Position numbers and translations under genes: made by a program
Shown here: positions 4,303-64,000 of the stretch, piece by piece
How positions within the stretch are numbered: position 1 is the first letter of the stretch
Layout: each line of letters begins with the position of its first letter
Notes under the pieces: model-generated
Told to the model about the DNA's origin: nothing
The model's database searches: none
What the model saw: the letters and a program-made list of their open reading frames with translations, nothing else
Source: an uncultured Acidobacteriota bacterium
Lineage (GTDB): Bacteria; Acidobacteriota; Vicinamibacteria; Vicinamibacterales; SCN-69-37
Direction of reading: 5' to 3'
DNA length: 64,000 nucleotides
NCBI GenBank assembly: GCA_963730095.1
Contig: CAVSQJ010000001.1
Coordinates: 689,599-753,598, forward strand

Positions 4303-5460
4303 ATGTGCGTGTTCACTGCCATGTTCCTGCGCCTGCCGCGAGGGTTCGGCGCTCGCCTCACGCGATTGTGGGCGGGGACGGCGGTGTGTGTCTTCGTGCT
4401 CGTCGGGCCAGCCCCGCGCGCCGCGCCGCCGCCGGCCGTCACCTTCGATGAGCTGTATCTCACCTACGCCGCCGGGGAGTACGACGTCGTCGAGCTCACG
4501 GTCCCGCGCGTGGACTATCGCAGCCTCAAGGTGCCCGACGCGGAGCACCTGAAGAAGTGGCTCGGCGCGTTCGACCGGCGGAAGGCCGCGTTCATTCTGG
4601 AGTTCGCGAGCGCGGCCGCCGGCCACGCGCCGGGCGGCGTGCTGACGACGCTCGGGGTCGGGCGCGCGTACGTCATGAGCCGGCCGGTGCCGCTTCACCT
4701 GTCGCGTACCGACGACGCGTTCGAGACCGCGTGGCACAAGAGCGCGATGGGCCTGCTCGAGAGCTGGTCGTTCGTCACCGCCGAGGACGTGTACCTCGAG
4801 GAGCTGATGAAGCGGTACGGCGCGTCGGGCGGCCTCGATCCCCGCTTCGTGCTCGAGCGCGCGATCGCGCAGGAACAACGCTGCGCGAGCGACGACAAGA
4901 TCGACAAACGGGACACGGCGGCGAGCGCCGTCGCCGCAGCCGCCAAGCCGACGCAGTCGCTCAGCGATCTTCTGACGCCGGTGACCGTCACGTCCGGCTC
5001 GGCGTGTCTGGCCGAAGCCAAGCACCGCTTTGCGCTCGCCGCGCTCGACCCGTCGACGGCAGCCGAGGCGAACACGCGCGGCGCCTGGGTGCAGTTCCAG
5101 CTCGGCGAGATCGCGGGCGCGCGCCTGACAATCGACAAGGTCGAAACGACGGACGATGCGGATCTCGCGTACTGGACGGCGCTGTTCCGCGGACGCATCA
5201 ACGATGCGGCAAACCGTCTGGCCGAAGCGGAACGCGCCTATCGGGCGGCGCTACAGGTGCGGCCGTCCGCGCAATCGGCCGCCATTGGCCTCGCGTTCAC
5301 GCTCTTCAGGATGGATCGGCGGGAGGAAGCGCGCGCGGCGGCCGGCGAGGCTCGCCGCCAGCCCGACGTCGCTTTTGATCCGTGGTGGAGGTATTTCGCC
5401 GGCGATGCGCGATTTCTCGCGACTTGGCGCGCCGAAATCCGCGGAGGGCTCGGGCAATGA
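4303..5460 (+). CDS. Hypothetical exported protein with TPR-like C-terminal region
   Basis: Hydrophobic N-terminus (alternative start M7 at 4321). The C-terminal helical-repeat-like sequence is AERAYRAALQVRPSAQSAAIGLAFTLFRMDRREEA. Its stop overlaps the next start (ATGA at 5457-5460). Confidence 0.55.
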   Translation: MCVFTAMFLRLPRGFGARLTRLWAGTAVCVFVLVGPAPRAAPPPAVTFDELYLTYAAGEYDVVELTVPRVDYRSLKVPDAEHLKKWLGAFDRRKAAFILEFASAAAGHAPGGVLTTLGVGRAYVMSRPVPLHLSRTDDAFETAWHKSAMGLLESWSFVTAEDVYLEELMKRYGASGGLDPRFVLERAIAQEQRCASDDKIDKRDTAASAVAAAAKPTQSLSDLLTPVTVTSGSACLAEAKHRFALAALDPSTAAEANTRGAWVQFQLGEIAGARLTIDKVETTDDADLAYWTALFRGRINDAANRLAEAERAYRAALQVRPSAQSAAIGLAFTLFRMDRREEARAAAGEARRQPDVAFDPWWRYFAGDARFLATWRAEIRGGLGQ

Positions 5461-6320
5461 GGCGCGCGCTGCCCGTCGTCATCGCCGTCGTGACGCTTTC
5501 GGCGCTGCCCGTCGCGCAGGGCGCCGTGTTTCGCGGAGGCACGGACGTCGTGACGCTTGCCGTCACGGTCCAGCGCGGCAAGACGCCGGTGCCAGGACTC
5601 CTCGCCGCGGATTTCGAGGTGCGGGACAGTGGCGTGCCGCAGGTCGTGACGGACGTGAGCTACAGCCGCATGCCAATCGATCTGCGGCTGGTGTTCGACA
5701 CGAGCGGCAGCATCACCGACGACCAGCTGCAGCGCTACCTCCGGGCGATGGTGCAGATCACGGGCACGCTTCAGGCGACCGATCGGTGCGACATCCTGGC
5801 GTTCTCGACGCGCGTGATCGAGCCGGCGACGCTGCAGGCGCCACCGATCGCGGTCAATCTGCGCCGCGCGCTGCCGAAGGCGACGTCGTTCTACGATGCG
5901 GTGGGCCTCTCGCTCGTGACCGCGCCCGTCGACGGCCGGCGGCAGCTCACGATCGTGCTGAGCGACGCCGACGACAACACGAGCTTCTTCGACTACGAGA
6001 TGATGCTCGAGATGGCGCGGCGCACGGACGCGGTCGTGTACGCCGTGACTCCGGCCGATGCGTGGCTGAGCGATCCCGATCGCGGCAAGATTTTTCGTGA
6101 GCGATTGCAGCGGCTGGCGCGGCTCACGGGAGGACGCGTGATTCCCGCGGAGGCCGACGTCGTGCCGGCCTTCCTTGGCGCGATCGAAGAGTTCCGGCAG
6201 AGCTACGTGGTCGTGTACACGGCCACAGGCGTTCCGCGCGGCGGCTTCCATCCGTTGACGGTCACCGTCCGCGGACAGAAGTCGCTCGCCGTGCGCACGC
6301 GGCAGGGGTATACGGGCTAG
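5457..6320 (+). CDS. VWA domain protein (acidobacterial VWFA-related type)
   Basis: Signal peptide MRRALPVVIAVVTLSALPVAQG. Contains FRGGTDVVTLAVTV, the MIDAS-like motif DLRLVFDTSGSI, and C-terminal HPLTVTVRG..VRTRQGY. Confidence 0.8.
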   Translation: MRRALPVVIAVVTLSALPVAQGAVFRGGTDVVTLAVTVQRGKTPVPGLLAADFEVRDSGVPQVVTDVSYSRMPIDLRLVFDTSGSITDDQLQRYLRAMVQITGTLQATDRCDILAFSTRVIEPATLQAPPIAVNLRRALPKATSFYDAVGLSLVTAPVDGRRQLTIVLSDADDNTSFFDYEMMLEMARRTDAVVYAVTPADAWLSDPDRGKIFRERLQRLARLTGGRVIPAEADVVPAFLGAIEEFRQSYVVVYTATGVPRGGFHPLTVTVRGQKSLAVRTRQGYTG

Positions 6321-6323
6321 CGT

Positions 6324-7520
6324 CTACTCGTCGTCGGCGGGCACGCCCGACCCGGCGTTACGATTCGCCTTCGTCACGAAGCTGATCTGCAGATCGAACT
6401 GCGCCGGCGTCGTCGTGTGGTAGCTCTGGAACGCGGCGGTATGGATGTCGCCGCCGCCGCCCGTGTCGATTTGCGCCCGCAATCCGCGCTTGTCCAACTC
6501 CGCCTTCACGGCATCCGGATCCCATGGCTGAATGCCGAACGAGATGTGATCGATGTTCGCACGGCGCGGAGGCGGCGGCGCGTTCGGATCGGCGCCACGG
6601 CCTCCCCCGCCAGCGCGAATGATGACGCCGCCGACGTCGCCGATCTCGCACTGGTTCTGCCGGCCGGTGTCCTTACCGAGCTTCCAGCCGAGTAGCGCCT
6701 GATAGAACGCGACTGTCTCTTTGTAGTTCGTGCACTGGAAGGAGATGTGATCGAGCCACACGGTATTCCAGCCCGTCGGGTCGAACGGCGCCGGTGCGCT
6801 GGTCTTCCCGTTGGCGGCCGACGTGCGCCGGTTCTTCATGTTGCCGTTGCTGATCTGCAGATCGAAGCCGTCTGGATCTTTCACGTGGAAGGATTGGAAG
6901 TCCTTACCCTGGTGATCGGCGACGGGATTGAGGCCGCGCTTCGTGAGCTCGGTCTCGACCTTCTTGGTGTCCCACGGCTCCACGCCCCAGCAGAAGCCGT
7001 CGACCACGAACTGACGCGGTTGCGCAGGCCCGCGCCCACCGCCGCGTCCCTGCCGACCGGCTGCCGCTGGATCGCCAGCGGCTGCGGGCGTCGGTGTCGG
7101 TGTTGCGGGCGGCGGCGCCGGCGGCGGCTGATACCCGCCGCGGATCACGAATCCGCCCCAGTTGCCGATGTCCAGCACCGCCTGCTTGCCGTCGTCGCTG
7201 CGAATTTTCCAGCCCATCAACGCGGCGTAGAACGCGGCTTCCTTCTGATAGTCGACGGCCTGACTGGAGAAGTGATCGAGGAGGACCGTCGTCCAGCCCG
7301 TCGCTTCGAACGGCAGCTTGGCCGGCGTCGTGTCGGGCGGCGGGCCCTGGCGCTGGCCCTGGCCGCGCGCGCCTGCGGGGTCTTGTCCTGCGTCGCGCCC
7401 GAACGCCAGCGCGGAAATCGGTCGAACGGCGACCGCGACGCCGAGCGCCTGCAGCAATTGCCGGCGCGAGATGCGGCCACGGTCGTACTCATTGAATAGT
7501 CTCGCGAGCCTGTCACTCAT
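6324..7520 (-). CDS. Tat-exported tandem VOC (glyoxalase/bleomycin-resistance fold) protein
   Basis: Twin-arginine signal ISRRQLLQALGVAVA. Two VOC-like halves (LDHFSSQAVDY.. and LDHISFQCTNY..), each with an R/G-rich loop. Confidence 0.75.
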   Translation of the reverse strand: MSDRLARLFNEYDRGRISRRQLLQALGVAVAVRPISALAFGRDAGQDPAGARGQGQRQGPPPDTTPAKLPFEATGWTTVLLDHFSSQAVDYQKEAAFYAALMGWKIRSDDGKQAVLDIGNWGGFVIRGGYQPPPAPPPATPTPTPAAAGDPAAAGRQGRGGGRGPAQPRQFVVDGFCWGVEPWDTKKVETELTKRGLNPVADHQGKDFQSFHVKDPDGFDLQISNGNMKNRRTSAANGKTSAPAPFDPTGWNTVWLDHISFQCTNYKETVAFYQALLGWKLGKDTGRQNQCEIGDVGGVIIRAGGGGRGADPNAPPPPRRANIDHISFGIQPWDPDAVKAELDKRGLRAQIDTGGGGDIHTAAFQSYHTTTPAQFDLQISFVTKANRNAGSGVPADDE

Positions 7521-39247: not shown

Positions 39248-41407
39248 TCACTTCCCCGGCTGATACGTGCGCGTCGTGTGTCCCTGCAGCTGCGCCGGGT
39301 AGAAGTACACCTCGCGCAGATCGCCCGTGGCGTAGCGCTTGGCCTCGTCGTTGAAGTGCGGCGACTTCGGGATCGCCGCTTTCGCCGCCGGCGGTGACGG
39401 CCCGAGCGCGCACCGTCGGTCCAAACTCGACGACAGCGACGAAGCTGTTGCCGCTCGTGCCGTACCATTTCTTCGTGCCAGGATACGCGCGCGCGCCGAA
39501 CGAGGCGAGCGAGCCCCACGTGGCGGAGGTGAACGGCACCGGAATGACTCGGGCCCGCGTCGTTGAAGGGCTGGACGATGTCGCCGGTGAGGCGCTGGAA
39601 GCGATTGATGTCGCCCCACGGCGTTTTCCACGTGCCGAAGTCCGACGTCAGCCGGCCGCACGCTGCGACGAGCGCCTGCAGCAGCTGACCTGCGGCGCGC
39701 GGCCGTCCACCGGGCCGCCTCGTCCGCGGCCGCCGGCGCGCTGCGCTTCTTCGCCCCAGAACACCGCGAGCGACGTCGGGATCGAATCGGCGGCCCAGCG
39801 CAGATCCCACCCGCGCAGCTGCGCGATCGTTCCGCGAGCGACGCCTTCAGCGGATCGCCGGGTGGCAGCGCGTCGTACGCCTTGATGAGCGCCGGCATCG
39901 GCTTCTCGAACCACGTCAGATAGCTGTCGAACGCGGCGCCGACGAGCGAATCGAGCGTGAAGTCCTTCTTGTCCTGCAACACGCGCACGGCGTGCAGTCC
40001 GCGCGCCGATTCGCTGCCGTTGTCCACGTACTTCGGGTAGTCGCTCTGCTTCGGGCTGCTCGGCCCCGCGGCCGACCACGGCCAGTTGTTGGAGTTGTAG
40101 AGCCAGCCGCTCGCCGGATTGAGCAGGTGCGGCGTCTCGTCGATCGAGAGCAGGCCCTGCTAGTCGGTCTCCGGATTGCTGCCGTCGACCGGCTTCGTCC
40201 AGTCGAAGCTGGGGTCGCGCTTCGGGATGAAGTTGCCGTGGAAGTACGCGATGTCGCCGTCGGCGTCGGCGAAGATCGTGTTGTTCGACGAGTTGGTGTG
40301 CAGCTCCAGCGACTGCCGGAACGACTTGTAGTCGGTCGCCTTCGTGCGCGAGTAGGACTGCGTCAGCGCCTTCACCGGCTCGTTCATCAGCGCGAACGCG
40401 ACCCACTTGCCGTTCATGTCGCGGACGATGGGCCCGTGCTGCGTGCTGATACGTCGTGAACGCCTTCTTCGCCATGCCGGTGTCCGTCTTGTACGGCACG
40501 GTGATCTCGCTCGTCGACACCGGCCGCTCGTCATTGCCGTACTTGTAGAAGTAGCTTGCCGCCGCTGTTCGTCGACGGTCTCGAGGAACTCGTCCGGTTG
40601 CATCGACGCCGCTCGACGTGTGCATCCAGCCGGCGCGCGCGATTGAAGCCCTGGTAGACGAAGAACTGTCCCCACGTCGCCGCGCCGTAGGCGTCGAGGC
40701 CTTCGTCGCTCGTCATCTGCAGCTCGGAGCGGAAGAAGAACGACGTGTGCGGATTGATCAGCAGCAGCGCGTGATGGCCGACGGTGTTCGACGGCGCGAT
40801 CGCACGCCGTTCGAGCCGCGCGGCTCTTCGTCGGCCGGCGCCGGCTCGGGCGGCAGCTCGCTCGCCGGCGTCTTGCCGTAGAACGCCTGCAGCTGATTGA
40901 GGTTCACGCGCTCGATGTCGCCGCCGATGCTGCCCTCGGTGAAGCGACAGCGCCATCCACGGCTCGAAGTGCGTGATCACGCGCGGCTTCACGCCGGGAT
41001 GCTTCGCGAGATAGAAGTTGAGACCGTCCGCCCACGCGTTCATCAGGCTCTTGAGCCACGCCGGGCTCGACGCGTAGTCCTTCTTCAGCGACCTCCGGGT
41101 CGATGAACAGCTTCATGCGCAGGTCCTGCTAGACCTTCGACTCGCCTTCGGCTTCCGCCAGCCGGCCCATCGCGTTGATGTAGTTCGTCTCGACGCGATT
41201 GAAGTCGTCCTCGGCCTGCGCGTAGATCATGCCGAACACGGCGTCGGCGTCGGTCTTGCCGGTGACGTGCGCGATGCCCCAGTCGTCGCGGACGATCGTG
41301 ATGCGGCCCGCTTGCTGCTGCCAGCGCGCCATGTCGGCGCTCTGCAGCGCGGACGGCACGGTGACGGGCACGGCGAGGATGAGAAAGAGGAGAAGGAGTT
41401 TTTTCAT
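39248..41407 (-). pseudogene. S45 penicillin-amidase/AHL-acylase family gene, heavily disrupted (about 11-12 frameshifts plus 2 in-frame TAG)
   Basis: Colinear family segments are scattered over all three minus frames of the track. In order: signal peptide plus RDDWGIAHV.., MNAWADGLNFYLAKHPGVKPRVITHFEPWMALS, APSNTVGHHALLLINPHTSFFFRSELQM (nucleophile Ser), MHTSSGVDA, KWVAFALMNEP..IAYFHGNFIPKRDP, NPASGWLYNSNNWPW (my translation), TWKTPWGDINRFQR, PFTSATWGSLASFGARAYPGTKKWYGTSGNSFVAVVEF, SPHFNDEAKRYATGDLREVYFYP. Confidence 0.85.
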
Positions 41408-43241: not shown

Positions 43242-43287
43242 CGTCGCCGCGGGGGTCGGCGCGTGGAGACCGTTCAGTCGTGCGTCA

Positions 43288-46200
43288 TCAGAACACCAGC
43301 TGCGTGCCGACGCGGAACACGCGCGGCGGTACGATCGATGTCGGCGCGCCGAAGCGCGCGCTCGACAGGCTGTCGCTGGAGTAGTTGAGGATCGTGTTCA
43401 CGTTGAACACGTTGAAGGCGTCGAACATCACCTTCACGCGGTTCTTGCCGCCCCGGAACGTGAACACCTTCTGCGCGCCCAGGTCGAGCAGCTTCGTTGG
43501 CTGCAGCCGCGTCAGGCCGTCGTTCTGGAACCGCAGGTTGTTGTACGGGCCGTTGTTTCCGCCGATCGTCGTCGGCTGGCCCGCGGCGTTCACGCCGCCG
43601 TAGACGTTGCCGGGCCCGGTGACCGTCACCACCCGGTTGTCGCCGTCGTTCACGTTGAGATTGGCCGACGTGTTGATGCCGTACGGCATCGCGTACGTCC
43701 CGCTGATCTTGATCAGGTACCGCGCGATCGTGCTCCTCGTGTCCTGGAACACGATGCCGGTCGGATTCACGTACGATCCCGTCGGCGTGAACCCAGGATT
43801 CGTCTGCAGCGTGGCCGACGCGTTCATCTGCCAGCGATCGCTGAATCGCTTGGTCAGTGTCGGGACGACGGCCTGGTACGTGGAGTAGCTCAGGTCGGTC
43901 ACCGTGATCGATCCGAGGCCCGAGGGCCGGATGCAGCCATCGCAGATCCTGGTAGTACGGCGCGGTGATCTTCGTCGTCGGGTCGGTGTAATAGAGCGGG
44001 CCCGTGTAGATCTGGGACAGCGGGAACTTTGGGGCGCCCGGCTGATAGCCGGCGGTGTACGCCGCGGTGCCGTCGTCGTACTTGCGATACACGTAGTCGA
44101 CGCCGACCGCGAGGTTCGGCATGAGCTCGTGCTGCACGCCGGTAATGAACTCCTTCGTGCGCGCGAGCTTCGCGTTCGGATCGACGGCGTTGCCGGCAGG
44201 CGTCAGCACGCCGGTGGTGACGTCGAACCGACTGCTGCTCGGCGTGGGCGTGCCGGTCAGCTCGTTCGCCTGGATGATGCCGTCGAGATTCTGATCGATC
44301 CAGCAGGACGTGCCCGTGCACGTGCCGTTCGCGGCATTGTTGCCCCAGGCGAGCTGCAGCGCGCCGAGGCCGCTGAGGCTGTTGGCGAGCGTGATCTTCG
44401 TCTGGTAGTACAGCGAGTAGCTCGCGTGCACCGAGGTCTTGCCGTTGCCGAACACGTCATAGGTCGCTGACACGCGCGGCGCGAAGACGCTGAACGACGG
44501 AAGCGGGGTGAGGACCGGATTTCCGCTGGCGTCGAGCGTCGGCAGCCCCGTGTTCGGATCGAGCACCGTGGACAGGTTGGTCTCGGCGTCGCACTGCGCC
44601 GGCAGCAGATCGGGGCGCACGATGTTGGCCGGGACGCATCCGCCGAGGTACTTGGACGTCTGCCAGTCGTAGCGCAGGCCGCCCTGGATGCGCCACCGCC
44701 CGCGGCTGTAGCCGTCCTGGATGTAGCCGTCGTACGTCCACCAGTCGTTGTTGGCCGACAGGCGATCGCGGCCAAGCGTGGCGGACCGGGCGACGAAGCC
44801 CGCGGCCGAGCCGGGCGCGACGAAGTTGCCGTTGCCACAGAGGCTCGCGTTATTGCCCACGCACTGCACGCTGGCGCGTCCACCGCCGCTGTAGTGCGAG
44901 TAGGTCATGATCGGATTGCGTCGCCAGCCGGCGCCGAACTTCAGGCTGTGGTCGCCCCCGAGCTTGTTGGTGAGGAAGTACGTGCCGTCGGTCTTCGCTT
45001 CCCAGGACTTCCGCACGGTCTGGTAGGTCCTCGCGAGCGAGTGGCTCGAGAGGCCGGACGTGTTGTTGCTGAGCGACTGCACGTTCCACAAGCAGTTGGC
45101 GCTCGCGCGGCTGCCCGTCAGATAGTCCTGCGCATTGGCCGTGTTCAGATACCGGCTCTGGAGACAGCCTCCCAGCGGCGGCACGTCCTGGTAATCGAGA
45201 AAGAACCCGCCGCCGACATACGTGAGCTGGTTGTTGAACACGAGCTTGTCGGTGAGGATCAGCGTGTGCGTCAGCGAGTGCGTGGGAAGCGGGAGCTTCC
45301 ACGGGGCGTCGCTGGTCTGCTGGGTCGTGGCTTCCGTCGCGGTGTTCGCGCTGGCGCCGCGGTGGTTGCGGTACTTGTTGTCGCTCGAGAACAGGTACTG
45401 GATCTTGTTCGCCGAGTTGAGCTGGTAGTTGAACTTCCACTCGAGGTCCTTGATCACCGTCTTGTCGTTCGTCAGGCAGTCGACGACGTTGTTGAGCTTG
45501 TCGTAGGTCGCCGTGCTCGAGAGCGCGTTGCCGCCCTGCTTCTGCGCGGCCACGAGCTGGCTGCAGAACGCGCCTTTGCTCGCGTCGAAGAAGTTCACGA
45601 CGCCGACGTTGATGTCCTGCTTGTCAGCGGCGCCCCAGAACCACAGGCGGTTGCGCTTGATCGGACCGCCGTATTCGACCGAGTAGTTGGTGATCTTTTG
45701 CAGCGGGTTGCCCGAGAGCAGGCCGCTCGTGCCCGAATAGAAAAGCTCGGGCGTGACGTTGTTGGCCTGCATCGCGTCGTTCTCGAACGTCGCGACGGCG
45801 GTGCCCTTGAACACGTTGCTGCCGCTCTTGCTCACGAGGTTGATGCTGAGGCCGCTCGACTGGACCGACACGTCGCCGCCGCCCGTCGTCACCTGGATCT
45901 GCTCGAACGAGTCGAAGTTGAAGTACGCCGGCGAGCTGTTCGACGAGAGGTCCGTGATTGCCCCGCCCTCGAGGTTCCACTGCACGTTGGAGCCCGTGCC
46001 GTAGACGCTCAGGCCCACCTGCTGGCCCGACGAGGAGCCGCCGACGTTCAGGCCGGCCTGCACGCCCGGCGTCATGTTGATGATCTGCCACGGGTCGCGC
46101 GCGGTCGGGATGTTCTCGAGGATCTCCTTGCTGAACGTCGCACCGGTGGTCGTCTTCTTCGTGTCGACGACCGGCGCGGCCGCGGTGATCGTCATTTCCT

Positions 46201-46546
46201 CCGAGACCTGCCCGATCTCCATCTTTTGATCGATGGGCGCGTTGAAATTCGTTTCGATGACCACGTTCGGCCGCGCGGCTTTCTTGAAGCCGTTCAGCTC
46301 GAACGTCACCGTATACGTGCCGATCGGCACGGTGGGGAACTGGTACGTTCCGCTCGCGCCGGTCGTCGCGACCAGCGCCCGTTGCAGCCCGCTGCCCGTG
46401 ACCGTCACGGTCACGCCCGGCAGGATGCCGCCGGACGGGTCGGTGACCTTGCCGAAAATCGATCCCATGCCCTGGGCGTGGGCCGAGCCGGCGCACAGTG
46501 CCAGCACGGCTGGCACGAGCAGGATCCCTCGGAAGACTCTCGTCAT
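43288..46546 (-). pseudogene. TonB-dependent receptor with CarboxypepD_reg-like N-domain; frameshift near 43940-43950
   Basis: Start at MTRVFRGILLVPAVLALCAGSAHA. The N-domain reads GKVTDPSGGILPGVTVTV..GTYTVTFELNGFK. After ..APYYQDL the long ORF turns into Arg-rich nonsense, while ORF 43288..43902 carries the real barrel end ..RVFRVGTQLVF (terminal Phe). Confidence 0.85.
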
Positions 46547-46727
46547 CTTTCCTCCTTGGCCCTCCTGCGTCCCCGCGATACGTGGACGTTGGATGCTACG
46601 GTAGGGTATGAAGTCGGTCTCCCTGGTAGTATCCTGTCGAGACTGTATTTCTTGGCCGGAAAGCCGGGATTCCAGTCCCCGCCCCCAGCGGGCTGCGCCT
46701 CGACGACCGCCACCAGGAGGTTGAGCC

Positions 46728-48125
46728 ATGGCAACCGGCTCGCCCGCGGCTGCGCGCGTTGACTACCTGCCTGAAGGAGGGCCCCGGCTGCCCGACCGCC
46801 TCGGGCTGCGCGTCCTGCTTCTGCTCGGCTTCGGCGGGGTCTTCATCCTCTGGCTCCTCTTCGGCTACGCGATCGCCGACAGCACCGTCGAGACCGACAA
46901 CCGGAGCGCGATGCTTCGCGCGCGCTTTCTCCGCAACGAAGAGCTGCTCTCGACGGTGCGCGTGCAGGCGCTGCTGAGCTCGGTGTACGTTCGCGACGCC
47001 CTGACCGATCCCGATCGATCGCAGGGAGACTTCTATCGCGACGAGCTGTCGCAGATCCGGCGGACGATCGAACAGGCCATGGCCGAGTACGCGCCGCACG
47101 CCGACGTCGAGCAGGCTGACGTCGATCGGCTGCGGCGGCGGCTTCGCGAATTCTGGGACGCGATTGAGCCCGTGCTGACATCGGCGCGCGGGGCGACTCC
47201 CGCCGAGTCGCGCGCGTTTCTGCGCGACGAGGTGATCCCCCGTCGAGAGACGGTGATCAACATCTCCGAGGAAATTCACGCGCTCAACAAGGACGCATTC
47301 GAGGCCGAACAGAAGGAGCTCGCCGAGATTCGCGGCACGCTGCACTTGCGCATCTGGCTGACGAGCCTCACGACGATCGGCCTGGCCCTGGTCGTCGCCT
47401 TGCTCGCGGCCCGCGCGGTCGGCCGGCTGAACGCCCGCCTGCGCGACCAGCATCGTCACGAGGTCAAGCAGACGCGCGAGCTGGCGCGCCTCTCGACGCG
47501 CCTGCTCGAGGCGCAGGAAGACGAGCGGCGCCGCATTGCGCGCGAGCTGCACGACGAGATCGGCCAGGCGCTCGGCGCCCTGAAGCTCGAGCTGGCCGTC
47601 GCCGAGCGGACCGCGGCCGGCTCGTCGCTCGACGTCGTGCTGGCCGAGGCCCGATCGATCACGGACCGGACGATCACCACGGTCCGGGATCTGTCGCAGC
47701 TGCTGCATCCGGCCATGCTCGACCATCTCGGCCTGCCGGACACGGCGGACTGGTACCTGCGGGCGTTCTCGCGGCGTACCGGCATCGCGAGCGAGCTTCG
47801 CATCGAGCGGCTCGACGAGCGTTTGCCGCACGATGTCGAGGTCTGTACGTACCGCGTGATTCAGGAGGCCACGACCAACGTCGCGCGCCACGCCGGCGCG
47901 ACGTCCTGCCGCGTGCGCATCGCCCGCGATCCGCGCGCGCTGCGCGTAGTCGTCGAGGACAACGGGCACGGCTTCACGCCCGGGCCGCCTCGGATGACCG
48001 ACGGCCACGGGCTCGGGTTGATCGGCGTGCGCGAACGCGTCGCGAGCCTCGGCGGGAGCCTGCGCGTCGAGAGCGGCGCGGGCGCCGGCACCTGCCTCAC
48101 CGTCGACCTGCCATTGTCGGCCTGA
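46728..48125 (+). CDS. NarX/LiaS-type sensor histidine kinase (HisKA_3 + HATPase_c) with a periplasmic helical sensor
   Basis: Two TM segments flank a helical domain. H-box is RIARELHDEIGQAL. The ATPase region includes IQEATTNVARHA..DNGHGF..GHGLGLIGVRERV. Confidence 0.9.
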   Translation: MATGSPAAARVDYLPEGGPRLPDRLGLRVLLLLGFGGVFILWLLFGYAIADSTVETDNRSAMLRARFLRNEELLSTVRVQALLSSVYVRDALTDPDRSQGDFYRDELSQIRRTIEQAMAEYAPHADVEQADVDRLRRRLREFWDAIEPVLTSARGATPAESRAFLRDEVIPRRETVINISEEIHALNKDAFEAEQKELAEIRGTLHLRIWLTSLTTIGLALVVALLAARAVGRLNARLRDQHRHEVKQTRELARLSTRLLEAQEDERRRIARELHDEIGQALGALKLELAVAERTAAGSSLDVVLAEARSITDRTITTVRDLSQLLHPAMLDHLGLPDTADWYLRAFSRRTGIASELRIERLDERLPHDVEVCTYRVIQEATTNVARHAGATSCRVRIARDPRALRVVVEDNGHGFTPGPPRMTDGHGLGLIGVRERVASLGGSLRVESGAGAGTCLTVDLPLSA

Positions 48126-56922: not shown

Positions 56923-57594
56923 CTATCGCGCGACGGCCAGCGCGAAGCGCTCGACCAGCCCGTCGCAGAAGATCTGCACGCCGACGGCCAGCAGGATGAA
57001 CGCGGACAACCGGAGCAGGATCGTCGTGCCCGTGCCGCCGAGCGCGCGGAGGACCGGCGTCGCAAACCGGTACGCCAGGTAGATCGCCGCCGCCGCGATT
57101 GACAGGCCCACGACGGTGCCGGCCAGCCCGAACGCCGTGTCGACGTTCACGCCGTGCGTGCCGGCGCCGAGCGTGACGGACACCGAAATCGATCCAGGCC
57201 CGACCGTGAGCGGAAAAGTCAGCGGGTAGAAGCTGCGCTGGCGGATGTCGGAGACGCCGGGCAGAGCGGTGGCCGACGCGAGATCGGTGTCCGTGTTCTG
57301 ATCCGCGGAGAGCAGGCGCCAGCCGGTCGCGCTCACGAGCAGCCCTCCCGCCATCCTGACGACCGAGACGGGCAGCCCGAAGAAGGCCAGGACGTACGAG
57401 CCGATGAGCGTCGCGGCGACGAGGAGCAGAAACGAGTTGCTCGCGATGCGCCAGGCGAGCGCCGTGCGCGTGGCCTCATCCGCGCCCGGCGTCATCGAGA
57501 GGAAGATCGGCGCCGATCCGGGCGGATTGATGACCGGCAGCAGCGCGGCCAGCGTCAGGATCGCGGCGCGAATGAAGTTACCGATGTGGTCCAT
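56923..57594 (-). CDS. MarC-family (UPF0056) integral membrane protein
   Basis: 223 aa from MDHIGNFIRAAILTLAALLPVINPPGSAPIFLSMT.. with six hydrophobic segments. It is the C-terminal part of the artefactual 1318-aa ORF. Confidence 0.85.
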   Translation of the reverse strand: MDHIGNFIRAAILTLAALLPVINPPGSAPIFLSMTPGADEATRTALAWRIASNSFLLLVAATLIGSYVLAFFGLPVSVVRMAGGLLVSATGWRLLSADQNTDTDLASATALPGVSDIRQRSFYPLTFPLTVGPGSISVSVTLGAGTHGVNVDTAFGLAGTVVGLSIAAAAIYLAYRFATPVLRALGGTGTTILLRLSAFILLAVGVQIFCDGLVERFALAVAR

Positions 57595-57662
57595 GAGCCT
57601 CTCGCGGCGCGTCCGCGACATCTCGCGGCGCCCGCGCCCGCCCGCGCCGTGCCTTGATGTCG

Positions 57663-58694
57663 CTACCGCGGCCGCGCGATTCCCAGCTTCAGCATCCGGC
57701 TGCGAAGGGTGCTCGGCTTGAGGCCGAGAATCTGCGCCGACCCGCGGCTGCCTTCGATGCGCCACCGGCAGTCCTCGAGCACGCGCACGATGTGGCGGCG
57801 CTCGACATCGACGAGCGTGCCGGTGCCCGTGGCGTACGCCGCGGCCGACTCGGATGGCGGCCGCCACCGATCGCCCAGCGTCAGCACGCCGCCCACGGAG
57901 AGAATGATCGCATGCTGCAGCACGTTCTCGAGCTCGCGCACGTTGCCCGGCCAATCGTACGAGTCGAGCGCGCGCATCGTCGCCGGCGGAATCACGTCGA
58001 TGCGCTTCTGAAGGGCCGGCGCGAGCCGGGCGACGAGATGGCGCACGAGCAGCGGCAGGTCCTCCTTGCGATCGCGCAGCGACGGCATCGTAATTGGAAA
58101 CACGTTCAGCCGGTAGAAGAGATCCGCGCGGAAGCGGCCCTGCCGCACGTCCGTCAGCAGGTCGCGGTTGGTCGCCGCGATGAGCCGCATGTCCACGTCG
58201 ACGGTCCGCGGGTTGCCGAGCCGCTCGATCTGCCCGTTCTGCAGGACGCGCAGCAGCTTCGGCTGCAGCTCGAGCGGCAGCTCGCCGATCTCGTCGAGGA
58301 AGATCGTCCCGCGGTTGGCCAGCTCGAACCGCCCGACCTGCGTCGTGTGCGCGCCGGTGAACGCGCCGCGCTCGCGCCCGAAGAGCTCGCTCTCGATGAT
58401 CGTCGCCGGCAGCGACGCGCAGTTGACGACGACGAACGGACGATCGCGGCGGCGGCTGCGCCGATGGATGTCGCGGGCGACGAGCTCCTTGCCCGTGCCG
58501 GTCTCGCCGAGCAGCAGTACCGTGGCGTCGGTTTCGGCGACCTGCTCGGATCGCGTCGTCACGTAACGCATTACGTCGCTGTCGCCGACGATGGCAAACT
58601 TGTCGCGGTCGTGGGTGTCCCGAATCGCACGCGCAGCCGAGCCATTGACGACGACGTCGTGCGATTCGTTCACGGGCAATCCTGCGAATGGCAT
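57663..58694 (-). CDS. Sigma-54-dependent transcriptional activator without a sensory N-domain (PspF-like architecture)
   Basis: AAA+ core: [26 protein letters not shown] and [13 protein letters not shown]-terminal Fis-type HTH: [21 protein letters not shown]. Only about 40 aa precede the AAA+ domain. Confidence 0.9.
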
Positions 58695-58875
58695 GACCGG
58701 CTCCTACAGGGGGTGCCCGACATCTTGCGTCGGCTGGCGCGCCACGAGAGGTAGGACGTCGGTAAGTTCTCGCGACGAACGAGTAAGCCGCGAGTAAAGT
58801 GGGAGATCGAAAGAGCAAGCGGCGCCCGGCCAGAGGACAATGGCGTCGAGATCGATCTTCGAAGGAGAGCTCAGC

Positions 58876-60858
58876 ATGCGTCGCGTGATCGCGCTGTCGT
58901 TCGTGACGGTTGCCTTCGTTCCAGCCACGGCCCGGACCGCGGCGACGACTCCTTCCATCGACGATTTGATCTCGCTCAAGCGCGTCGCGGGCGTCCCGGC
59001 GATCTCGCCAGACGGGCGCCGGGTGGCGTACACCGTGCGCGAGACGAACTGGGACGAGGACCGGTATCAGACACAGATCTGGATCGCCGACGTCGCCACC
59101 GGCGTCGTCAAGCAGCTGACGAACGCGCCGAAGTCGAGCAGCGCGCCGGCGTGGTCGCCCGACGGCCGGCGCCTCGCGTTCGGATCGGACCGGACGGACA
59201 AGCGGCAGATCTACGTGATCGATCCCGCCGGCGGCGAAGCCGAGCGGATGACGTCGGGTGAGGAAGGCGCGGGCGCGTTCAAGTGGTCGCCCGATGGCCG
59301 GACGATCGCGTTCACCGCGACCGATCCCGCGCCCGATCGGCTGAAGGCGCAGGAAAAGATGTTCGGTCAATTCGACATCATCGGCCGCGAGCACCGCATG
59401 ACGCACCTGTGGCTGCTCGAGATCGCGACGAAGCAGATCAAGCGCCTGACGTCGGGCGATTTCACCGTGGGCGGTTTCGACTGGTCGCCGGATAGCCGCC
59501 AGATCGCGTTCGACCATCAGATCAACGGCGACAACGCGAACGGCGGGACGGCCGACATCTCGATCGCGACCGTGGCCGATGGTACCGTGCGGCCGCTCGT
59601 GACGCAGGCGGGACCGGACACGAATCCCGTCTGGTCGCCCGACGGCGCCCGCATCGCGTTCGAGACGCACATGGCGAATCCCTCGTTTTTCTACTCGAAC
59701 ACCCTGATCGCCATCGTTCCGGCCGCGGGCGGGACGATCGAGCCCGCGTCGAACACGTTCGACGAGGACGCGTCGATCGTCGCGTGGAAGGGCAGCGGCC
59801 TGTATTTTTCGGGAGATCAACGCACGGCGAGCGGCCTGTTCCGGCTCGACGTGGCGGCGCGGACGTTCACGAAGGTGCTGCCGGCCAGCGGAGAAATCGG
59901 CCTCGCGTTTTCCTTGAGCGCCAGCGCCGACGCCGTGGCGTTCGTCAAGGCGACGCCGACGTCGGTCCCGGAGGTGTTCGTGTCGGCGGGCGGCACGACG
60001 AAGCGGCTGACGTCGTTCGATGCGCAAACAGCCGACTGGGCGCATCCGACGCACGAGGTCATCACCTGGAAGAGCCAGGACGGGACGACGATCGAGGGCG
60101 TGCTGCACAAGCCGGCGGATTTTCGCGCCGGCGGGCGCTACCCGCTGCTCGTCGTCATCCACGGCGGGCCGACGGGCATCTCGCGGCCGATTCCGTTTTC
60201 GAGCACGAGCATCTATCCGATCGATATCTGGCTCGGGAAAGGCGCGCTGGTGCTCGAGCCGAACTATCGTGGTAGCGCGGGCTATGGCGAGAAGTTCCGG
60301 TCGCTGAACGTTCGCAACCTGGGCGTCGGCGATGCGTGGGACGTGCTGTCGGGCGTCGACGCGCTCGTCGCCCAGGGGCTCGTCGATCCGGCGCGCGTGG
60401 GCGCGATGGGCTGGAGCCAGGGCGGGTACATCTCCGCATATCTCACGACGCACGACAGCGCGCGGTTCAAGGCGATCTCGGTCGGCGCGGGCATTTCCGA
60501 CTGGATGACGTACTACGTCAGCACGGACATCACGCCCTTCACGCCGCAGTACCTCAAGGCGACGCCCTGGGACGACCCGGAGATCTACGCGAAGACGTCG
60601 CCGATGACCTACATCAAGGGTGCGAAGACGCCGACGCTCATCCAGCACGGCGCGACCGACCAGCGCGTGCCGCCGCCCAATGCCTTCGAGCTCTACCGCG
60701 GCCTCCAGGACGAGCACGTTCCGAGCGAGCTCATCATCTACCGCGGCTTCGACGGCGTCGGGCACGGGCCGTCGAAACCCAAGTCGAGCCGGGCGGTCAT
60801 GACCCACAACCTCGAGTGGTTCGACAAGTACTTTTTTCCCGACCGCCCTGAACGCTGA
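58876..60858 (+). CDS. S9 family serine peptidase (prolyl oligopeptidase/DPP type) with an N-terminal beta-propeller
   Basis: Start at MRRVIALSFV (GAAGGAG RBS). PD40-like repeats (WSPDGRRLAF, WSPDGRTIAF, WSPDSRQIAF, WSPDGARIAF). Catalytic GWSQGGY, with Asp and His further downstream (..HGATDQRV.., ..GVGHG..). Confidence 0.85.
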   Translation: MRRVIALSFVTVAFVPATARTAATTPSIDDLISLKRVAGVPAISPDGRRVAYTVRETNWDEDRYQTQIWIADVATGVVKQLTNAPKSSSAPAWSPDGRRLAFGSDRTDKRQIYVIDPAGGEAERMTSGEEGAGAFKWSPDGRTIAFTATDPAPDRLKAQEKMFGQFDIIGREHRMTHLWLLEIATKQIKRLTSGDFTVGGFDWSPDSRQIAFDHQINGDNANGGTADISIATVADGTVRPLVTQAGPDTNPVWSPDGARIAFETHMANPSFFYSNTLIAIVPAAGGTIEPASNTFDEDASIVAWKGSGLYFSGDQRTASGLFRLDVAARTFTKVLPASGEIGLAFSLSASADAVAFVKATPTSVPEVFVSAGGTTKRLTSFDAQTADWAHPTHEVITWKSQDGTTIEGVLHKPADFRAGGRYPLLVVIHGGPTGISRPIPFSSTSIYPIDIWLGKGALVLEPNYRGSAGYGEKFRSLNVRNLGVGDAWDVLSGVDALVAQGLVDPARVGAMGWSQGGYISAYLTTHDSARFKAISVGAGISDWMTYYVSTDITPFTPQYLKATPWDDPEIYAKTSPMTYIKGAKTPTLIQHGATDQRVPPPNAFELYRGLQDEHVPSELIIYRGFDGVGHGPSKPKSSRAVMTHNLEWFDKYFFPDRPER

Positions 60859-60961
60859 CACCGTTTTCGCCCGATACAAAAGGACGGATGACGGTGTACT
60901 ATTCTTGGCTGGCGTCTGCCGATGAGCGTCGGGCGTCCGTCCCTGACTCGCTGGCTGTCAC

Positions 60962-62023
60962 ATGAATAACGAGATCGAATTGTCCGACTCCGCACGATCC
61001 GGAGCTACCGTGAACTGGAAAGAGGTCGTGGCGCGCTATCAGACGCCGTCGGTCGCGCGCGGGACCTATCAGGTGGCGAACACCCTGATTCCGTACGTGG
61101 CGCTCTGGGCGGTGATGTATTTCGCGAAAGACGTGTCGTGGTGGCTCGTCGCGCCGCTCGCCGTGCTCGCCGCGGGCTTCCTGGTGCGGCTCTTCATCAT
61201 TCATCACGACTGCGGCCACGGGTCGTTCTTCAAGTCGCGCCGGGCGAACGACACGCTGGGCTTCATCACAGGCGTGCTGACGTTCACGCCGTACGATCAC
61301 TGGCGCTGGGAGCACGCGCTCCATCACGCGACGTCGAGCGATCTCGATCGGCGCGGCATGGGCGACATCTGGACGCTCACCGTGCAGGAGTACCTCGAGT
61401 CCTCGCGCTGGCGGCGCTTCGCGTACCGCCTCGCGCGCAATCCCGTGATTCTGTTCGTCATCGCGCCGCTCTATCTCTTCCTCATCCAGCATCGCTTCGC
61501 GCGCGACGGCGCGAACCGCCGCGAGCGCGAATCGGTCTACTGGACCAACCTTGGTATCTGCGGCGTCGCCGCAGGCGTGAGCTGGATCTTCGGGCTCGAG
61601 ACCTACCTGATCATTCAGTTCATCATCATGGCCGTCGCCGGCGCCGCCGGCGTGTGGCTGTTCTACGTGCAGCATCAGTTCGAGGGCGTCTACTGGGAGC
61701 GCGAGGCGGAGTGGGATTACGTGAGCGCGGCGCTCCAGGGCAGCTCGTTCTACAAGCTGCCGAAAGTCCTCCAGTGGTTCTCGGGCAACATCGGCTTCCA
61801 CCACATCCATCACCTGAGCTCGCGCATTCCGAACTACCACCTCGAGCGCTGCCACGAAGCGGAGCCGCTCTTCCAGGCGGTGCGGCCCGTGACGCTCATC
61901 GAGAGCCTCCGCTCGTTCACGTTCCGGCTCTGGGACGAACAGCGCCGGCGGCTCGTCGGCTACGGCCACCTGCGCGCGATCCGTCGCGCGCAGCGCCAGG
62001 CCAGCCGACGGCAGGTGGCGTAG
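60962..62023 (+). CDS. Membrane fatty-acid desaturase
   Basis: Three His boxes: HDCGHGS, HALHH and HHIHH. Confidence 0.9.
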   Translation: MNNEIELSDSARSGATVNWKEVVARYQTPSVARGTYQVANTLIPYVALWAVMYFAKDVSWWLVAPLAVLAAGFLVRLFIIHHDCGHGSFFKSRRANDTLGFITGVLTFTPYDHWRWEHALHHATSSDLDRRGMGDIWTLTVQEYLESSRWRRFAYRLARNPVILFVIAPLYLFLIQHRFARDGANRRERESVYWTNLGICGVAAGVSWIFGLETYLIIQFIIMAVAGAAGVWLFYVQHQFEGVYWEREAEWDYVSAALQGSSFYKLPKVLQWFSGNIGFHHIHHLSSRIPNYHLERCHEAEPLFQAVRPVTLIESLRSFTFRLWDEQRRRLVGYGHLRAIRRAQRQASRRQVA

Positions 62024-62056
62024 ACGGGTACGACAGGTACGTCGGGGTACGACGGG
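62024..62056. repeat. Imperfect 9-bp-periodic block (ACGGGTACG-like, about 3.5 units); left arm of an inverted repeat
   Basis: ACGGGTACGACAGGTACGTCGGGGTACGACGGG is about 28/33 complementary to the block at 62133..62165. Confidence 0.6.
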
Positions 62057-62105
62057 CGCCAGGAACGTACTATCGCTGGCCAACATTCTTTACTTTCGAA
62101 CCAAA

Positions 62106-62128
62106 GAAGCTGACAGGAATGCAGCTTC
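62106..62128 (-). terminator. Hairpin GAAGCTG..CAGCTTC followed on the minus strand by TTTGGTT; likely terminator for the MoeZ-like gene
   Basis: 7-bp perfect stem with a 9-nt loop, in the AT-richer spacer between convergent genes. Confidence 0.45.
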
Positions 62129-62132
62129 CTCC

Positions 62133-62165
62133 TACCCGACGTACCCGACGTACCCGACGTACCCG
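62133..62165. repeat. Perfect tandem repeat TACCCGACG x3 plus TACCCG; right arm of the inverted repeat
   Basis: Read directly from the sequence. It ends 1 nt before the stop codon of the minus-strand gene. Confidence 0.8.
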
Positions 62166-63629
62166 TCAGTATTTCGGCAGTGTCGGATCGACTGCCGCGA
62201 TCCACGCCAGAATCCCGCCCGTGAGGTTGCTGGCGCGCGCGTAGCCGTGCTGGCGGAGCAGGGCGACGGCCTTGGCGCTGCGGCCGCCCATCTTGCAGTG
62301 CACGACGATGTCCGGCGCGTCGGGGCCTGAGGGAATCTCGGCGAGGCGCTTCGGTAGCTCGCCGAGCGGAATCAACGTCGAGCCGGGAATGCGGCAGATG
62401 TCGAACTCGCGCGGCTCGCGCACATCCAGAATCCACGTCGGCGTGCCGCGGTCCAGGCGCGCCTTGAGCTCCTCGACCGTGATCTCCGGTTCGGTCGACG
62501 CCGCCGCCGCGGTCGCGGCCGGCGCGACGCCGCAGAACTGCTCGTAGTCGATGAGCGCCTTGATCGTCGGCCGATCGCCGCAGATCGGACACGCCGGATC
62601 GCGCCGCAGCTTCACCGTGCGGAACTCCATCGTCAGCGCGTCGAGCAGCAGGAGCCGGCCCGCGAGCGTCTGTCCGGCGCCGGTGATGATCTTGATCGCT
62701 TCGGTCGCCTGGATCGTGCCGACCAGCCCCGGCAGGACGCCGAGCACGCCGCCCTCGGCGCAGCTCGGCACGAGGCCCGGGGGCGGCGGCTCCGGATAGA
62801 GGCAGCGGTAGCACGGGCCGTCCTTCGTCGCGAAGACCGAGGCCTGTCCATCGAACCGGAAGATGCTGCCGTACGCGTTCGGCTTGCCGAGCAGCACGCA
62901 GGCGTCGTTGACGAGGTAGCGCGTCGGGAAATTGTCCGCGCCGTCGACGATGACGTCGTACTGCGCGAAAAGATCTCGAGCGCGTTCGCCGACGTCAGCC
63001 GCGTTTCGTGCTCGACGACGCGCACGTTCGGATTGAGGTCGACGTGAGCCGTTCGGCGGCCGCCGCGAGCTTGCGGCCGACCGACGTCCGCCGTCGATGT
63101 ACAGGATCTGCCGCTGCAGGTTGCTGAAATCGACCGTGTCGAAATCCACCAACCCGAGCGTGCCGACGCCCGCGGCCGTGAGGTAGAGCGAGGCCGGCGA
63201 ACCCAGGCCGCCGGCGCCGATGCAAAGCACGCGCGCGGCCTTCAGGCGCTTCTGACCCTCGACGCCGATCTCCGGCATGATGAGGTGCCGACTGTAGCGC
63301 CGGACCTCTTCATGCGAGAGCGCCGCTGGGTCGGCCGGCGCCGCCACCGCGTCCGTGCCGCCGGCGACCGACGGCACGATGCTCACGGTGTCCGCCGCGC
63401 CGACCGCCGTCCGCTCGCGATCCAGATACCGCACGTCCTCGTCGTTCACGTACACGTTGACGAAGCTGCGCAGCGATCCATCCGACGCAAACAGATGCGG
63501 CTTCAGATCGACGTACTCGCTCGTCAGGCGATCGAGGACCTGTCCAACCGTGGCGCCCTCGACGTGGACGACGGCCTGCTGGGCCGTGAACGGCCGGAGG
63601 GGCGTGGGAATGCGAACGGTTACGGGCAT
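62166..63629 (-). pseudogene. CysO/ThiS-like Ubl (GG at aa 90-91) fused to a MoeZ/MoeB-type E1 adenylyltransferase and a C-terminal rhodanese; about 45 codons internally out of frame
   Basis: The Ubl domain reads MPVTVRIPTPLRPFT..FVNVYVNDEDVRYL..TVSIVPSVAGG. The E1 domain reads RYSRHLIMPEIG..VLCIGAGGLGSP..CYRCLYPEPP..CPICG. The rhodanese domain reads VVHCKMGGRS. The middle segment is nonsense in the long ORF, while ORFs 62995..63225 and 62633..63025 read GRKLAAAAERLT and VRVVEHETRLTSANALEIF. Confidence 0.85.
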
Positions 63630-64000
63630 GACGGGCTCCTTGGAGTCGAAAGGGTGACGAGCTCTTCAACGTACGCGCTGCGGTCCGGCCGCAGGCGCCA
63701 GGATCGCAGCTCGGCGTCGCGTCCGGCGCGGACCGAGACGATCGCGTAGCTGAGATTGGGCCACGCGTGCTCCAGGTCGAATGCGGAGGGCACGGCCGGG
63801 TGGTCCGGATGCGAATGGTAGAAGCCGAGCAGCTCGCGGCTGGTCTCGGACGCGCGCTGCTCGGCCCGCCGGTAGTCATCGGGCGTGACGGCAAATCGCC
63901 GCCGGCGCTCGCCGTCGAAGCGATTGTCGAGCGCGAGCGTGTCGTCGACGACGCCCGCGCGCGGCCCAAGCAGGGCGCCGCAGCACTCGTCGGGATACGC
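63620..64000 (-). CDS. JAMM/MPN+ metalloprotease (Mec/Mov34-like), N-terminus outside the window
   Basis: My translation is AYPDECCGALLG..ELLGFYHSHPDHPAVPSAFD (E..HxHx7Sx2D JAMM motif)..stop TAA at 63620-63622. It overlaps the downstream ATG (63629) by 10 nt, and an AAGGAG RBS lies inside its 3' end. It is not in the ORF track because the start lies outside the window. Confidence 0.85.
   Translation of the reverse strand, partial: AYPDECCGALLGPRAGVVDDTLALDNRFDGERRRRFAVTPDDYRRAEQRASETSRELLGFYHSHPDHPAVPSAFDLEHAWPNLSYAIVSVRAGRDAELRSWRLRPDRSAYVEELVTLSTPRSPSCP

Follow-up and report, generated by a model that had tools for sequence, protein, structure and literature searches.

The 64,000-nucleotide stretch of DNA analysed here (the window; contig CAVSQJ010000001.1 of an uncultured Acidobacteriota bacterium, order Vicinamibacterales) ends in two overlapping genes on its minus strand. 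The downstream gene encodes a protein of 487 residues in which a sulfur carrier resembling CysO of Mycobacterium tuberculosis is continuous, in one frame, with a MoeB/MoeZ-type (E1-like) activating enzyme and a rhodanese domain. The upstream gene leaves the window and ends in a JAMM metalloprotease domain. We describe these genes, their relatives at other loci and a candidate cysteine pathway in which the protease would free the carrier from its own activating enzyme.

The open reading frame was verified by translation. Pfam searches of the 487-residue product gave ThiS (PF02597) at residues 5–91 (E = 4e-13), ThiF at residues 112–348 (E = 3e-68, 229.9 bits) and a C-terminal Rhodanese match, and its top NCBIfam models were the MoeB and MoeZ adenylyltransferase/sulfurtransferases. 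Among solved structures, the best match of residues 1–91 was M. tuberculosis CysO (3DWG_C, E = 2e-18), followed by 4N6E_B. The CysO alignment ran end to end (residues 1–91 against 1–93 of 3DWG_C) and included the terminal Gly-Gly of CysO. The enzyme part matched Uba4 (6YUB, E = 4e-52) and MoeB (1JW9, E = 1e-50), and ThiF as well. Of the nucleotide-binding core, GAGGLG, RQ and DGADN were seen, as were both CxxC pairs, and the adenylation domain is followed by a rhodanese domain with its active-site cysteine. In place of the free C-terminal Gly-Gly of a CysO-type carrier, 396 residues come after Gly91 in this product: the linker TDAVAAPADPAA and then, in the same frame, LSHEEVRRYSRH, the usual opening of such E1-like enzymes. 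A sequence-only reading of the window, made by a model, had proposed a CysO-like domain of 91 residues that runs past its Gly-Gly through a linker into a ThiF/MoeB domain with CxxC pairs and a rhodanese. The structure and Pfam matches bear out each of these points; the position it gave for the Gly-Gly is exact, and the linker is 12 residues long.

The TAA stop codon of the JAMM frame overlaps the ATG of the fusion gene within ATGCCCGTAA (10 nucleotides, 63620–63629), and a Shine–Dalgarno sequence, AAGGAG (63636–63641), stands 6 nucleotides ahead of this ATG. Such an arrangement would fit translational coupling. The JAMM frame is open to the window edge and lacks a start codon. Its best solved structure was 2KCQ (E = 2e-27), and it has the full JAMM motif, the glutamate in ECCG followed by HxHx7Sx2D in HSHPDHPAVPSAFD.

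The rest of this gene was found on L083, a contig from JGI sample 3300086547 that we retrieved via look-up of the neighbouring desaturase protein. L083 is 99.57% identical to window positions 57706–64000 over 6.3 kb, has the identical 10-nucleotide gene overlap and extends further upstream. At its positions 5900–7273 (minus strand) it encodes a single protein of 457 residues with a cysteine synthase (PALP) domain at residues 19–297 and Prok-JAB at residues 322–434, the last 126 residues being 100% identical to the partial JAMM frame of the window. By comparison with L083, the window frame would be the C-terminal domain of a 457-residue PALP–JAMM fusion. A stand-alone Mec, as in M. tuberculosis, has about 140–150 residues; here the JAMM domain shares a frame with PALP in L083 and in the two relatives that come next in closeness, L082 (8618–9991) and L001, and the same one-protein architecture occurred in at least 120 further protein clusters, mostly annotated merely as 'cysteine synthase B'. 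The operon in this lineage therefore has two genes, cysM-JAMM and cysO-moeZ(rhodanese), which in L083 are divergent from a PilZ gene; the window covers the 3' two-thirds of the operon. The sequence-only reading had described an upstream JAMM gene with an intact motif and a 10-nucleotide overlap, and had advised looking further upstream for cysM. The domain, motif and overlap are as described and cysM is present; the JAMM domain is not a separate gene, being the C-terminal part of the PALP fusion in L083. Coordinates are collected in Table 1.

Table 1. Features of the fusion gene, the JAMM frame and the adjoining spacer (window coordinates)
Feature	Position	Strand	Basis or remark
Whole fusion open reading frame, CysO-like carrier + linker + adenylation + rhodanese	62166..63629	minus	487 residues as written
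CysO-like ThiS/MoaD beta-grasp sulfur-carrier domain, residues 1–91	63357..63629	minus	Pfam ThiS; 3DWG_C
Gly90-Gly91 of carrier	63357–63362	minus	translation
Linker TDAVAAPADPAA, residues 92–103	63321..63356	minus	12 residues, Ala/Pro-rich, directly after Gly-Gly
Predicted cleavage site Gly91/Thr92, at linker start		minus	inferred
MoeB/MoeZ-type E1-like adenylation domain, residues 104–351	62577..63320	minus	Pfam ThiF; NCBIfam; MoeB and Uba4 structures
GAGGLG of adenylation domain	63201–63218	minus	
DGADN of adenylation domain	62931–62945	minus	
CYRC, first CxxC pair, residues 273–276	62802–62813	minus	
Cys290 in PSCAEGG	62760–62762	minus	
CPIC, second CxxC pair, residues 347–350	62580–62591	minus	
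Frame-scrambled patch, residues 178–222	62963..63098	minus	alignment to relatives; four insertions, 6 nucleotides in total
Rhodanese domain, residues 384–478	62196..62480	minus	Pfam Rhodanese, E = 7e-19
Rhodanese active-site Cys445 in HCKMGGRS	62295–62297	minus	invariant in alignments of homologues
JAMM (Prok-JAB) metalloprotease domain, 3' end of gene leaving the window	63620..64000	minus	Pfam Prok-JAB, E = 5e-21
Zinc-site motif HSHPDHPAVPSAFD (HxHx7Sx2D)	63776..63817	minus	translation; intact
Upstream catalytic Glu of JAMM, in ECCG	63986–63988	minus	translation
Gene junction: Shine–Dalgarno + overlap	63620..63641	minus	sequence
Intergenic repeat element between convergent fusion and fatty-acid desaturase genes	62023..62165		Tandem Repeats Finder

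In a database of 5.8 billion proteins, more than 120 protein clusters matched the query over its full length (100%) and carried ThiS, ThiF and Rhodanese, the single-chain architecture that the sequence-only reading had proposed to look for; the named members are Vicinamibacterales. SIVPSVAGG and the E1 start are common to these full-length homologues, and the linker between them varies. We then compared 83 related genomic loci from independent assemblies, short-read metagenomes among them. Carrier and enzyme lie in one open frame at 52 loci and are split at 31, and L083 (99.6% identical) carries the same GGTDAVAAPADPAA junction between carrier and enzyme. The 52 fused loci and the shared junction rule out that the fusion reflects a lost stop codon, such as one missed after Gly-Gly, or an assembly artefact at the junction.

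The linkage to the protease is strict. The JAMM gene lies immediately upstream at 29 of the 31 split loci and, among the fused ones, at each of the 50 for which upstream sequence is available, frequently overlapping the start of the carrier, fused or split, and a CysM-like gene is found directly upstream of the JAMM gene at 70 of 77 loci. The carrier thus sits beside both a CysM-type synthase and a Mec-type JAMM protease, as a CysO-type carrier should. Each locus gave one ThiS-like match; no second ThiS-like gene was found in any of 80 loci.

PSVAGG is invariant in two alignments of fused homologues (38 and 37 sequences); remoter loci have SIAGG or AIAGG and still keep the Gly-Gly. The linkers of the fused proteins are unconserved (6–37 residues, median 11, 38% Ala + Pro), and 48 of 51 proteins have a small residue (Ser, Ala, Thr or Val) immediately after Gly-Gly. 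When the enzyme domains are arranged in a tree, fusion prevails in Vicinamibacteria, Bryobacterales, Blastocatellia/Pyrinomonadaceae and Gemmatimonadota. Fused clades enclose at least eight split lineages, and a Terriglobia group is largely split. In several of the splits, all that separates carrier and enzyme is a linker stop codon with an in-frame Met behind it. All 31 split carriers retain 1–29 residues beyond Gly-Gly, and none of the carriers in the clade, whether fused or split, ends at this motif (83 loci). In structure alignments, CysO of M. tuberculosis and of Amycolatopsis stops exactly at Gly-Gly.

Three side observations were made on these loci. Several of the split CysO homologues of Terriglobia (L027, L033, L037, L074 and L080) have Cys-rich tails after Gly-Gly, such as GGCCPCGCCCCPR, ...VGCCPPACGR and ...RRMRCCPACCR. 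Six loci recorded as Cyanobacteriota, Bifidobacteriaceae, Clostridia, Chitinophagaceae, Acetobacteraceae or Heliobacteriaceae (L008, L009, L021, L022, L041 and L048) carry the operon; since the enzyme tree places them amid acidobacterial sequences, their binning or labelling is probably wrong. Finally, an IscR-IscS-IscU-IscA cluster lies 1.5–4 kb downstream of the fusion gene in about 15 of 80 loci (for example L003 11505–12728, L014 11536–11997 and L004 13446–13877), and the cysteine desulfurase encoded there, IscS, would be a possible sulfur donor for the rhodanese domain.

The open frame of 487 residues, with its three good domain matches, conceals four frame errors that would, at face value, inactivate the enzyme, which is a warning for annotation. 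Comparison of the DNA with three relatives and with L083 placed four insertions in the adenylation domain: 1 nucleotide at about 63098, 1 at about 63075–63076, 2 at 63037–63038 and 2 at about 62963–62967. The 45 residues encoded across this patch (178–222, IDGGRRSAASS...ARDLFA) match nothing in homologues, and the conserved peptide STADVGRP/KLAAAAERLTS/LNPNVRVVEHETRLTSANALEIFS can be recovered only by translating the other two frames. Removal of the six bases gave a protein of 485 residues and raised the identity to the protein P0002 from 86.4% to 92.6%. L083 is free of these six nucleotides and encodes, at its positions 4452–5909, an intact protein of 485 residues. With the Pfam ThiF model this protein scores 283 bits and the window product 230 bits. 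In the window, the patch puts the DVGRxK Lys, a conserved residue, and the next helix–strand–helix of the Rossmann core out of frame; both are intact in L083. A phase scan of G+C content at third codon positions also marks the patch and is too noisy for counting frameshifts elsewhere. An exact look-up of the 487-residue product returned no encoding contig, because the near-identical strain encodes 485 residues.

Over the 6.3 kb compared, the window and L083 differ by 12 substitutions, one 9-nucleotide repeat unit and the four insertions. Seven of the 27 differing positions, including every small insertion or deletion, fall inside the same 135 nucleotides; three substitutions lie there, and four in the remaining 1.3 kb of the gene. 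Such clustering is not that of neutral decay. Patches with about 5% error in an otherwise clean sequence look like unpolished stretches of a long-read assembly, and we regard it as quite probable that the four insertions are such a patch. It is unlikely, though by no means negligible, that the insertions are real and mark a recently inactivated or radically altered allele whose frame was restored by chance. The window product agrees fully with the deposited protein P0001, the net gain of 6 nucleotides preserves the frame, and outside the patch and the one 9-nucleotide unit there are no insertions or deletions in 6.3 kb, so that the assembly is not uniformly error-prone. A real allele is hard to reconcile with four indels and three substitutions crowded into 135 nucleotides, and with bases between the insertions that still encode the conserved peptide in shifted frames. 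The scrambled stretch is moreover core Rossmann fold: in an AlphaFold2 model of an intact homologue, the equivalent segment is among the best-modelled parts, with a predicted local distance difference test score (pLDDT) of 76–90. Two further genes of the window also have frame breaks, compatible with an unpolished long-read consensus.

In the first of these two genes, a penicillin-amidase-like gene at 39251–41365 (minus strand), at least six alternating frames were needed to follow an 82%-identical relative (L087 4197–6608), and consecutive parts of Pfam PF01804 fall in different open reading frames. This region is either a decayed pseudogene or an unpolished assembly patch. A near-identical contig for it was not found, the best metagenome relative being 91% identical. 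In the second, a CarboxypepD_reg and outer-membrane beta-barrel gene at 43274–46729 (minus strand), the frame changes near 43,900–43,960: PF25183 positions 140–555 are in the long open reading frame and positions 692–836 continue in that at 43288..43902.

Downstream of the fusion gene, the spacer at 62023–62165 consists of two inverted arrays of a 9-nucleotide unit, GACGGGTAC x3.7 and TACCCGACG x3.7. Its RNA folds into a long hairpin (−89.6 kcal/mol, z = −9.1) that may act as a bidirectional transcript end or a stabiliser. The window has one unit more than L083, and in L082, a syntenic relative, the spacer measures only 21 nucleotides. A scan of 61800–64000 gave no consensus sites resembling promoters or terminators, and in L083 neither the operon nor the region upstream of it matched an Rfam family. 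Farther away, an open reading frame of 1318 residues (56923–60879, minus strand) is mostly a high-GC antisense shadow of an S9 peptidase gene (58840..60858, plus strand); its real part is the C-terminal region at about 56926–57594, a MarC-family gene.

The position of the Gly-Gly bears on how the carrier could work. The requirement for a free C-terminal carboxylate is established for MoaD/MoeB. Since the E1-like enzyme acts on the free carboxylate of the terminal glycine, a carrier with an internal Gly-Gly cannot be activated, and since all split carriers keep tails after Gly-Gly, all members of the clade need trimming. The carboxylate argument has been made for MoaX, which is inactive unless cut between Gly82 and Ser83 (PMC4326299). 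A JAMM protease, HvJAMM1, cuts linear SAMP1–MoaE precisely after Gly-Gly, both in vitro and in vivo (PMC4443979). Modelled with AlphaFold2, the linker of the intact homologue has a pLDDT below 50. This model (overall pLDDT 69.6, predicted template modelling score 0.51) was built from a shallow alignment of 37 sequences and was read only for the linker and for the segment equivalent to the patch. The invariant Gly-Gly, the tails and the JAMM linkage are compatible with obligatory processing. Together with the precedents, they lend support to the claim of the sequence-only reading that the fusion needs cleavage after Gly-Gly, and they strongly suggest that the JAMM domain makes this cut.

As an overall explanation, we favour, with somewhat better than even confidence, a cysteine pathway of two fusion proteins with a JAMM-released carrier. 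The carrier would be translated as a blocked precursor, with a flexible linker and then the activating enzyme attached behind its Gly-Gly. A cut after Gly91 by the zinc protease (JAMM) domain of CysM-JAMM would yield a carrier of 91 residues with a free C-terminal glycine. The MoeZ-like domain would adenylate Gly91, and a persulfide on rhodanese Cys445 would convert it to the thiocarboxylate. The cysteine-synthase domain would then condense the thiocarboxylate with an activated serine, an S-to-N acyl shift giving carrier-cysteine. Lastly, the same JAMM domain, tethered to the synthase, would hydrolyse the adduct to free cysteine and recycled carrier. Domain identities, fusion architectures, conservation and synteny were observed directly; the four steps after translation we infer from homology to M. 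tuberculosis and from JAMM precedents on linear carrier fusions. The sequence from thiocarboxylate through carrier-cysteine to hydrolysis is borrowed from the mycobacterial pathway (PMC3227635). In our interpretation, the protease–synthase fusion puts the protease where the adduct forms, and the carrier–E1 fusion yields one-to-one synthesis.

Several points weigh against this explanation. A literature search found no paper on the fused family showing cleavage or thiocarboxylate formation. The intact homologue was modelled only moderately well (pLDDT 69.6), and docking of the carrier cannot be read reliably from this model. As written, the enzyme of the window is without the conserved DVGRxK Lys and its adenylation domain is modelled with a pLDDT below 50 (soft evidence, being a model); if the insertions are real, this copy is dead. 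The curated cut-offs for the two specific enzymes are missed. The MoeZ equivalog NF005902 has a cut-off of 647 bits, against which the intact enzyme part of L083 scored 528.8 and the window product 478.5, and the synthase part of L083 scored 366.7 against the cysM equivalog, whose cut-off is 394.2. The substrates could therefore differ from the mycobacterial ones. Finally, MoeZ-type enzymes can also serve molybdenum cofactor synthesis (PMC3227635).

These last points bear most on the possibility that the operon makes a thiocarboxylate for another product, such as molybdopterin, a secondary metabolite or a thio-cofactor, with a different acceptor for the PALP enzyme. Besides the missed cut-offs and the dual role of MoeZR in mycobacteria (PMC3227635), this would be in line with the co-option of CysO-type carriers by other pathways, 4N6E_B being the second-best structural match. 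We hold it to be improbable. The broader models are passed: the intact enzyme part of L083 exceeds the cut-offs of the MoeB model NF006444 (464 vs 449) and of the subfamily model NF004281 (311 vs 266), and the synthase part that of the cysKM subfamily (347.8 vs 344.15), with cysM as its best model. In its four components and in their linkage, the operon corresponds to the cysteine operon of mycobacteria and to row 4c in Table 1 of PMC1779556. Tailoring or cofactor genes are not conserved nearby at the loci compared; only the isc genes recur, at about 15.

We give equally little probability to a cut after Gly-Gly by another protease or by self-processing, which would leave the JAMM domain as a Mec-like adduct hydrolase only. 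The protease that cuts M. tuberculosis MoaX is unidentified (PMC4326299), and adduct hydrolysis is the sole documented role of Mec (PMC3227635). Such a division of labour fits poorly with the precise cut made by a JAMM protease on a linear carrier fusion (PMC4443979) and with the strict, often overlapping linkage of the JAMM gene to the fusion gene; the bonds in adduct and precursor are, besides, both Gly-Xaa amides after the same Gly-Gly tail. Least probable of all is that the fused ThiS-like domain is never released and serves as a permanent docking or regulatory domain, with a separate free carrier elsewhere as substrate: this was argued by Iyer et al. for Ubl-ThiF fusions that co-occur with solo ThiS (the relevant passages of PMC1779556), and Ubl-E1 fusions are mentioned without cleavage evidence in the corresponding part of PMC2948915. 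Against such a reading, a second ThiS-like gene is missing from all 80 loci, and the fused domain, an orthologue of the free-standing carriers found in split sister lineages, matches best a true carrier, CysO, to its last Gly. Its Gly-Gly never varies, and a JAMM gene accompanies each of the 50 fused loci for which upstream sequence is available.

The two-fusion-protein pathway would extend a route that has been studied almost only in mycobacteria. The abundant soil phyla Acidobacteriota and Gemmatimonadota carry it in condensed form, as a carrier–E1 fusion and a synthase–protease fusion. The repeated fusion and fission that always leave a tail after Gly-Gly are indirect evidence of built-in processing. 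The fusion also offers a naturally occurring substrate on which to study the recognition and cutting of linear Gly-Gly junctions by JAMM proteases of prokaryotes, a question relevant to M. tuberculosis MoaX. Tentatively, and with more doubt than confidence, we suggest that the always-blocked pro-form of the carrier in the Acidobacteriota/Gemmatimonadota clade is a selected safety catch and not an accident of gene fusion, the synthase-tethered JAMM domain licensing the carrier by cutting it from the E1 and recycling it at each turnover. If this is true, the four-protein mycobacterial pathway has become a two-polypeptide, self-stoichiometric machine and a bacterial metabolic parallel to the processing of ubiquitin precursors.

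The closest known system is the thiocarboxylate cysteine pathway of M. tuberculosis (CysM, CysO, Mec and MoeZ), summarised in PMC3227635. The same four activities are predicted here: a CysO-like carrier, a MoeB-like E1 with rhodanese, a JAMM protease and a CysM-like pyridoxal phosphate enzyme, the last two genetically linked to the first two. M. tuberculosis makes each of the four as a protein of its own, has moeZ at an unlinked site and has a CysO that stops exactly at Gly-Gly, whereas here the carrier is fused to the activating enzyme and the protease to the synthase. Since the carriers of this clade have residues after Gly-Gly, maturation cleavage is needed besides adduct hydrolysis. The operon type itself (cysteine synthase, JAB, ThiS/MoaD and E1-rhodanese) was catalogued in 2006 by Iyer, Burroughs and Aravind, whose row 4c (PMC1779556, Table 1) includes the acidobacterium Solibacter usitatus. 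Our literature search, and the text searched in PMC1779556 and PMC2948915, gave no description of a CysO-MoeZ(rhodanese) or a CysM-JAMM fusion; both architectures are present in public databases under generic names. The locus is thus a new architectural form of a known pathway, the features of its carrier, E1-rhodanese and JAMM protease matching known types.

JAMM proteases of the QbsD/HcyD type must expose the Gly-Gly of their carrier before activation. The systems to which they belong, QbsE/QbsD/QbsC (quinolobactin), PdtH/G/F and HcyS/HcyD/HcyF (Wolinella), likewise combine a ThiS-like carrier with an E1 and a JAMM protease, and in the Qbs and Pdt systems the E1 carries a rhodanese, as here; the operon class is that of rows 4a–4c in PMC1779556. 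Their extensions are only one or two residues long, where here the extension is an enzyme of 390 residues, and they serve siderophore or methionine synthesis in place of the CysM-linked route. In MoaX (MoaD–MoaE) and SAMP1–MoaE, as in the present fusion, the Gly-Gly of a beta-grasp carrier lies inside the chain, the carrier being joined to a partner from its pathway. That partner is the sulfur-using MoaE, whereas here it is the adenylating enzyme; further, the SAMP1–MoaE given to HvJAMM1 was engineered (PMC4443979) and the present fusion is natural. An N-terminal beta-grasp domain on an E1 also occurs in Ubl-ThiF of Campylobacter-type thiamine operons and in Ubl-E1-TBP of Thaumarchaeota, according to the sections of PMC1779556 and PMC2948915 concerned. 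In the Campylobacter type, those sections of PMC1779556 describe a fused domain that is distinct from ThiS and thought not to be the carrier, a co-occurring solo ThiS and thiamine operons without JAMM. In contrast to both families, the fused domain here is the only carrier at the locus, and a JAMM gene is adjacent at the fused loci.

A more distant likeness is found in eukaryotes, where polyubiquitin and ubiquitin–ribosomal protein fusions are precursors with a blocked Gly-Gly that is freed by deubiquitinases, JAMM enzymes among them. In both cases a carrier or modifier is made with a blocked Gly-Gly and, on the reading favoured here, released by a dedicated peptidase; the bacterial system would do so for sulfur transfer and not for protein conjugation, and without E2 or E3.

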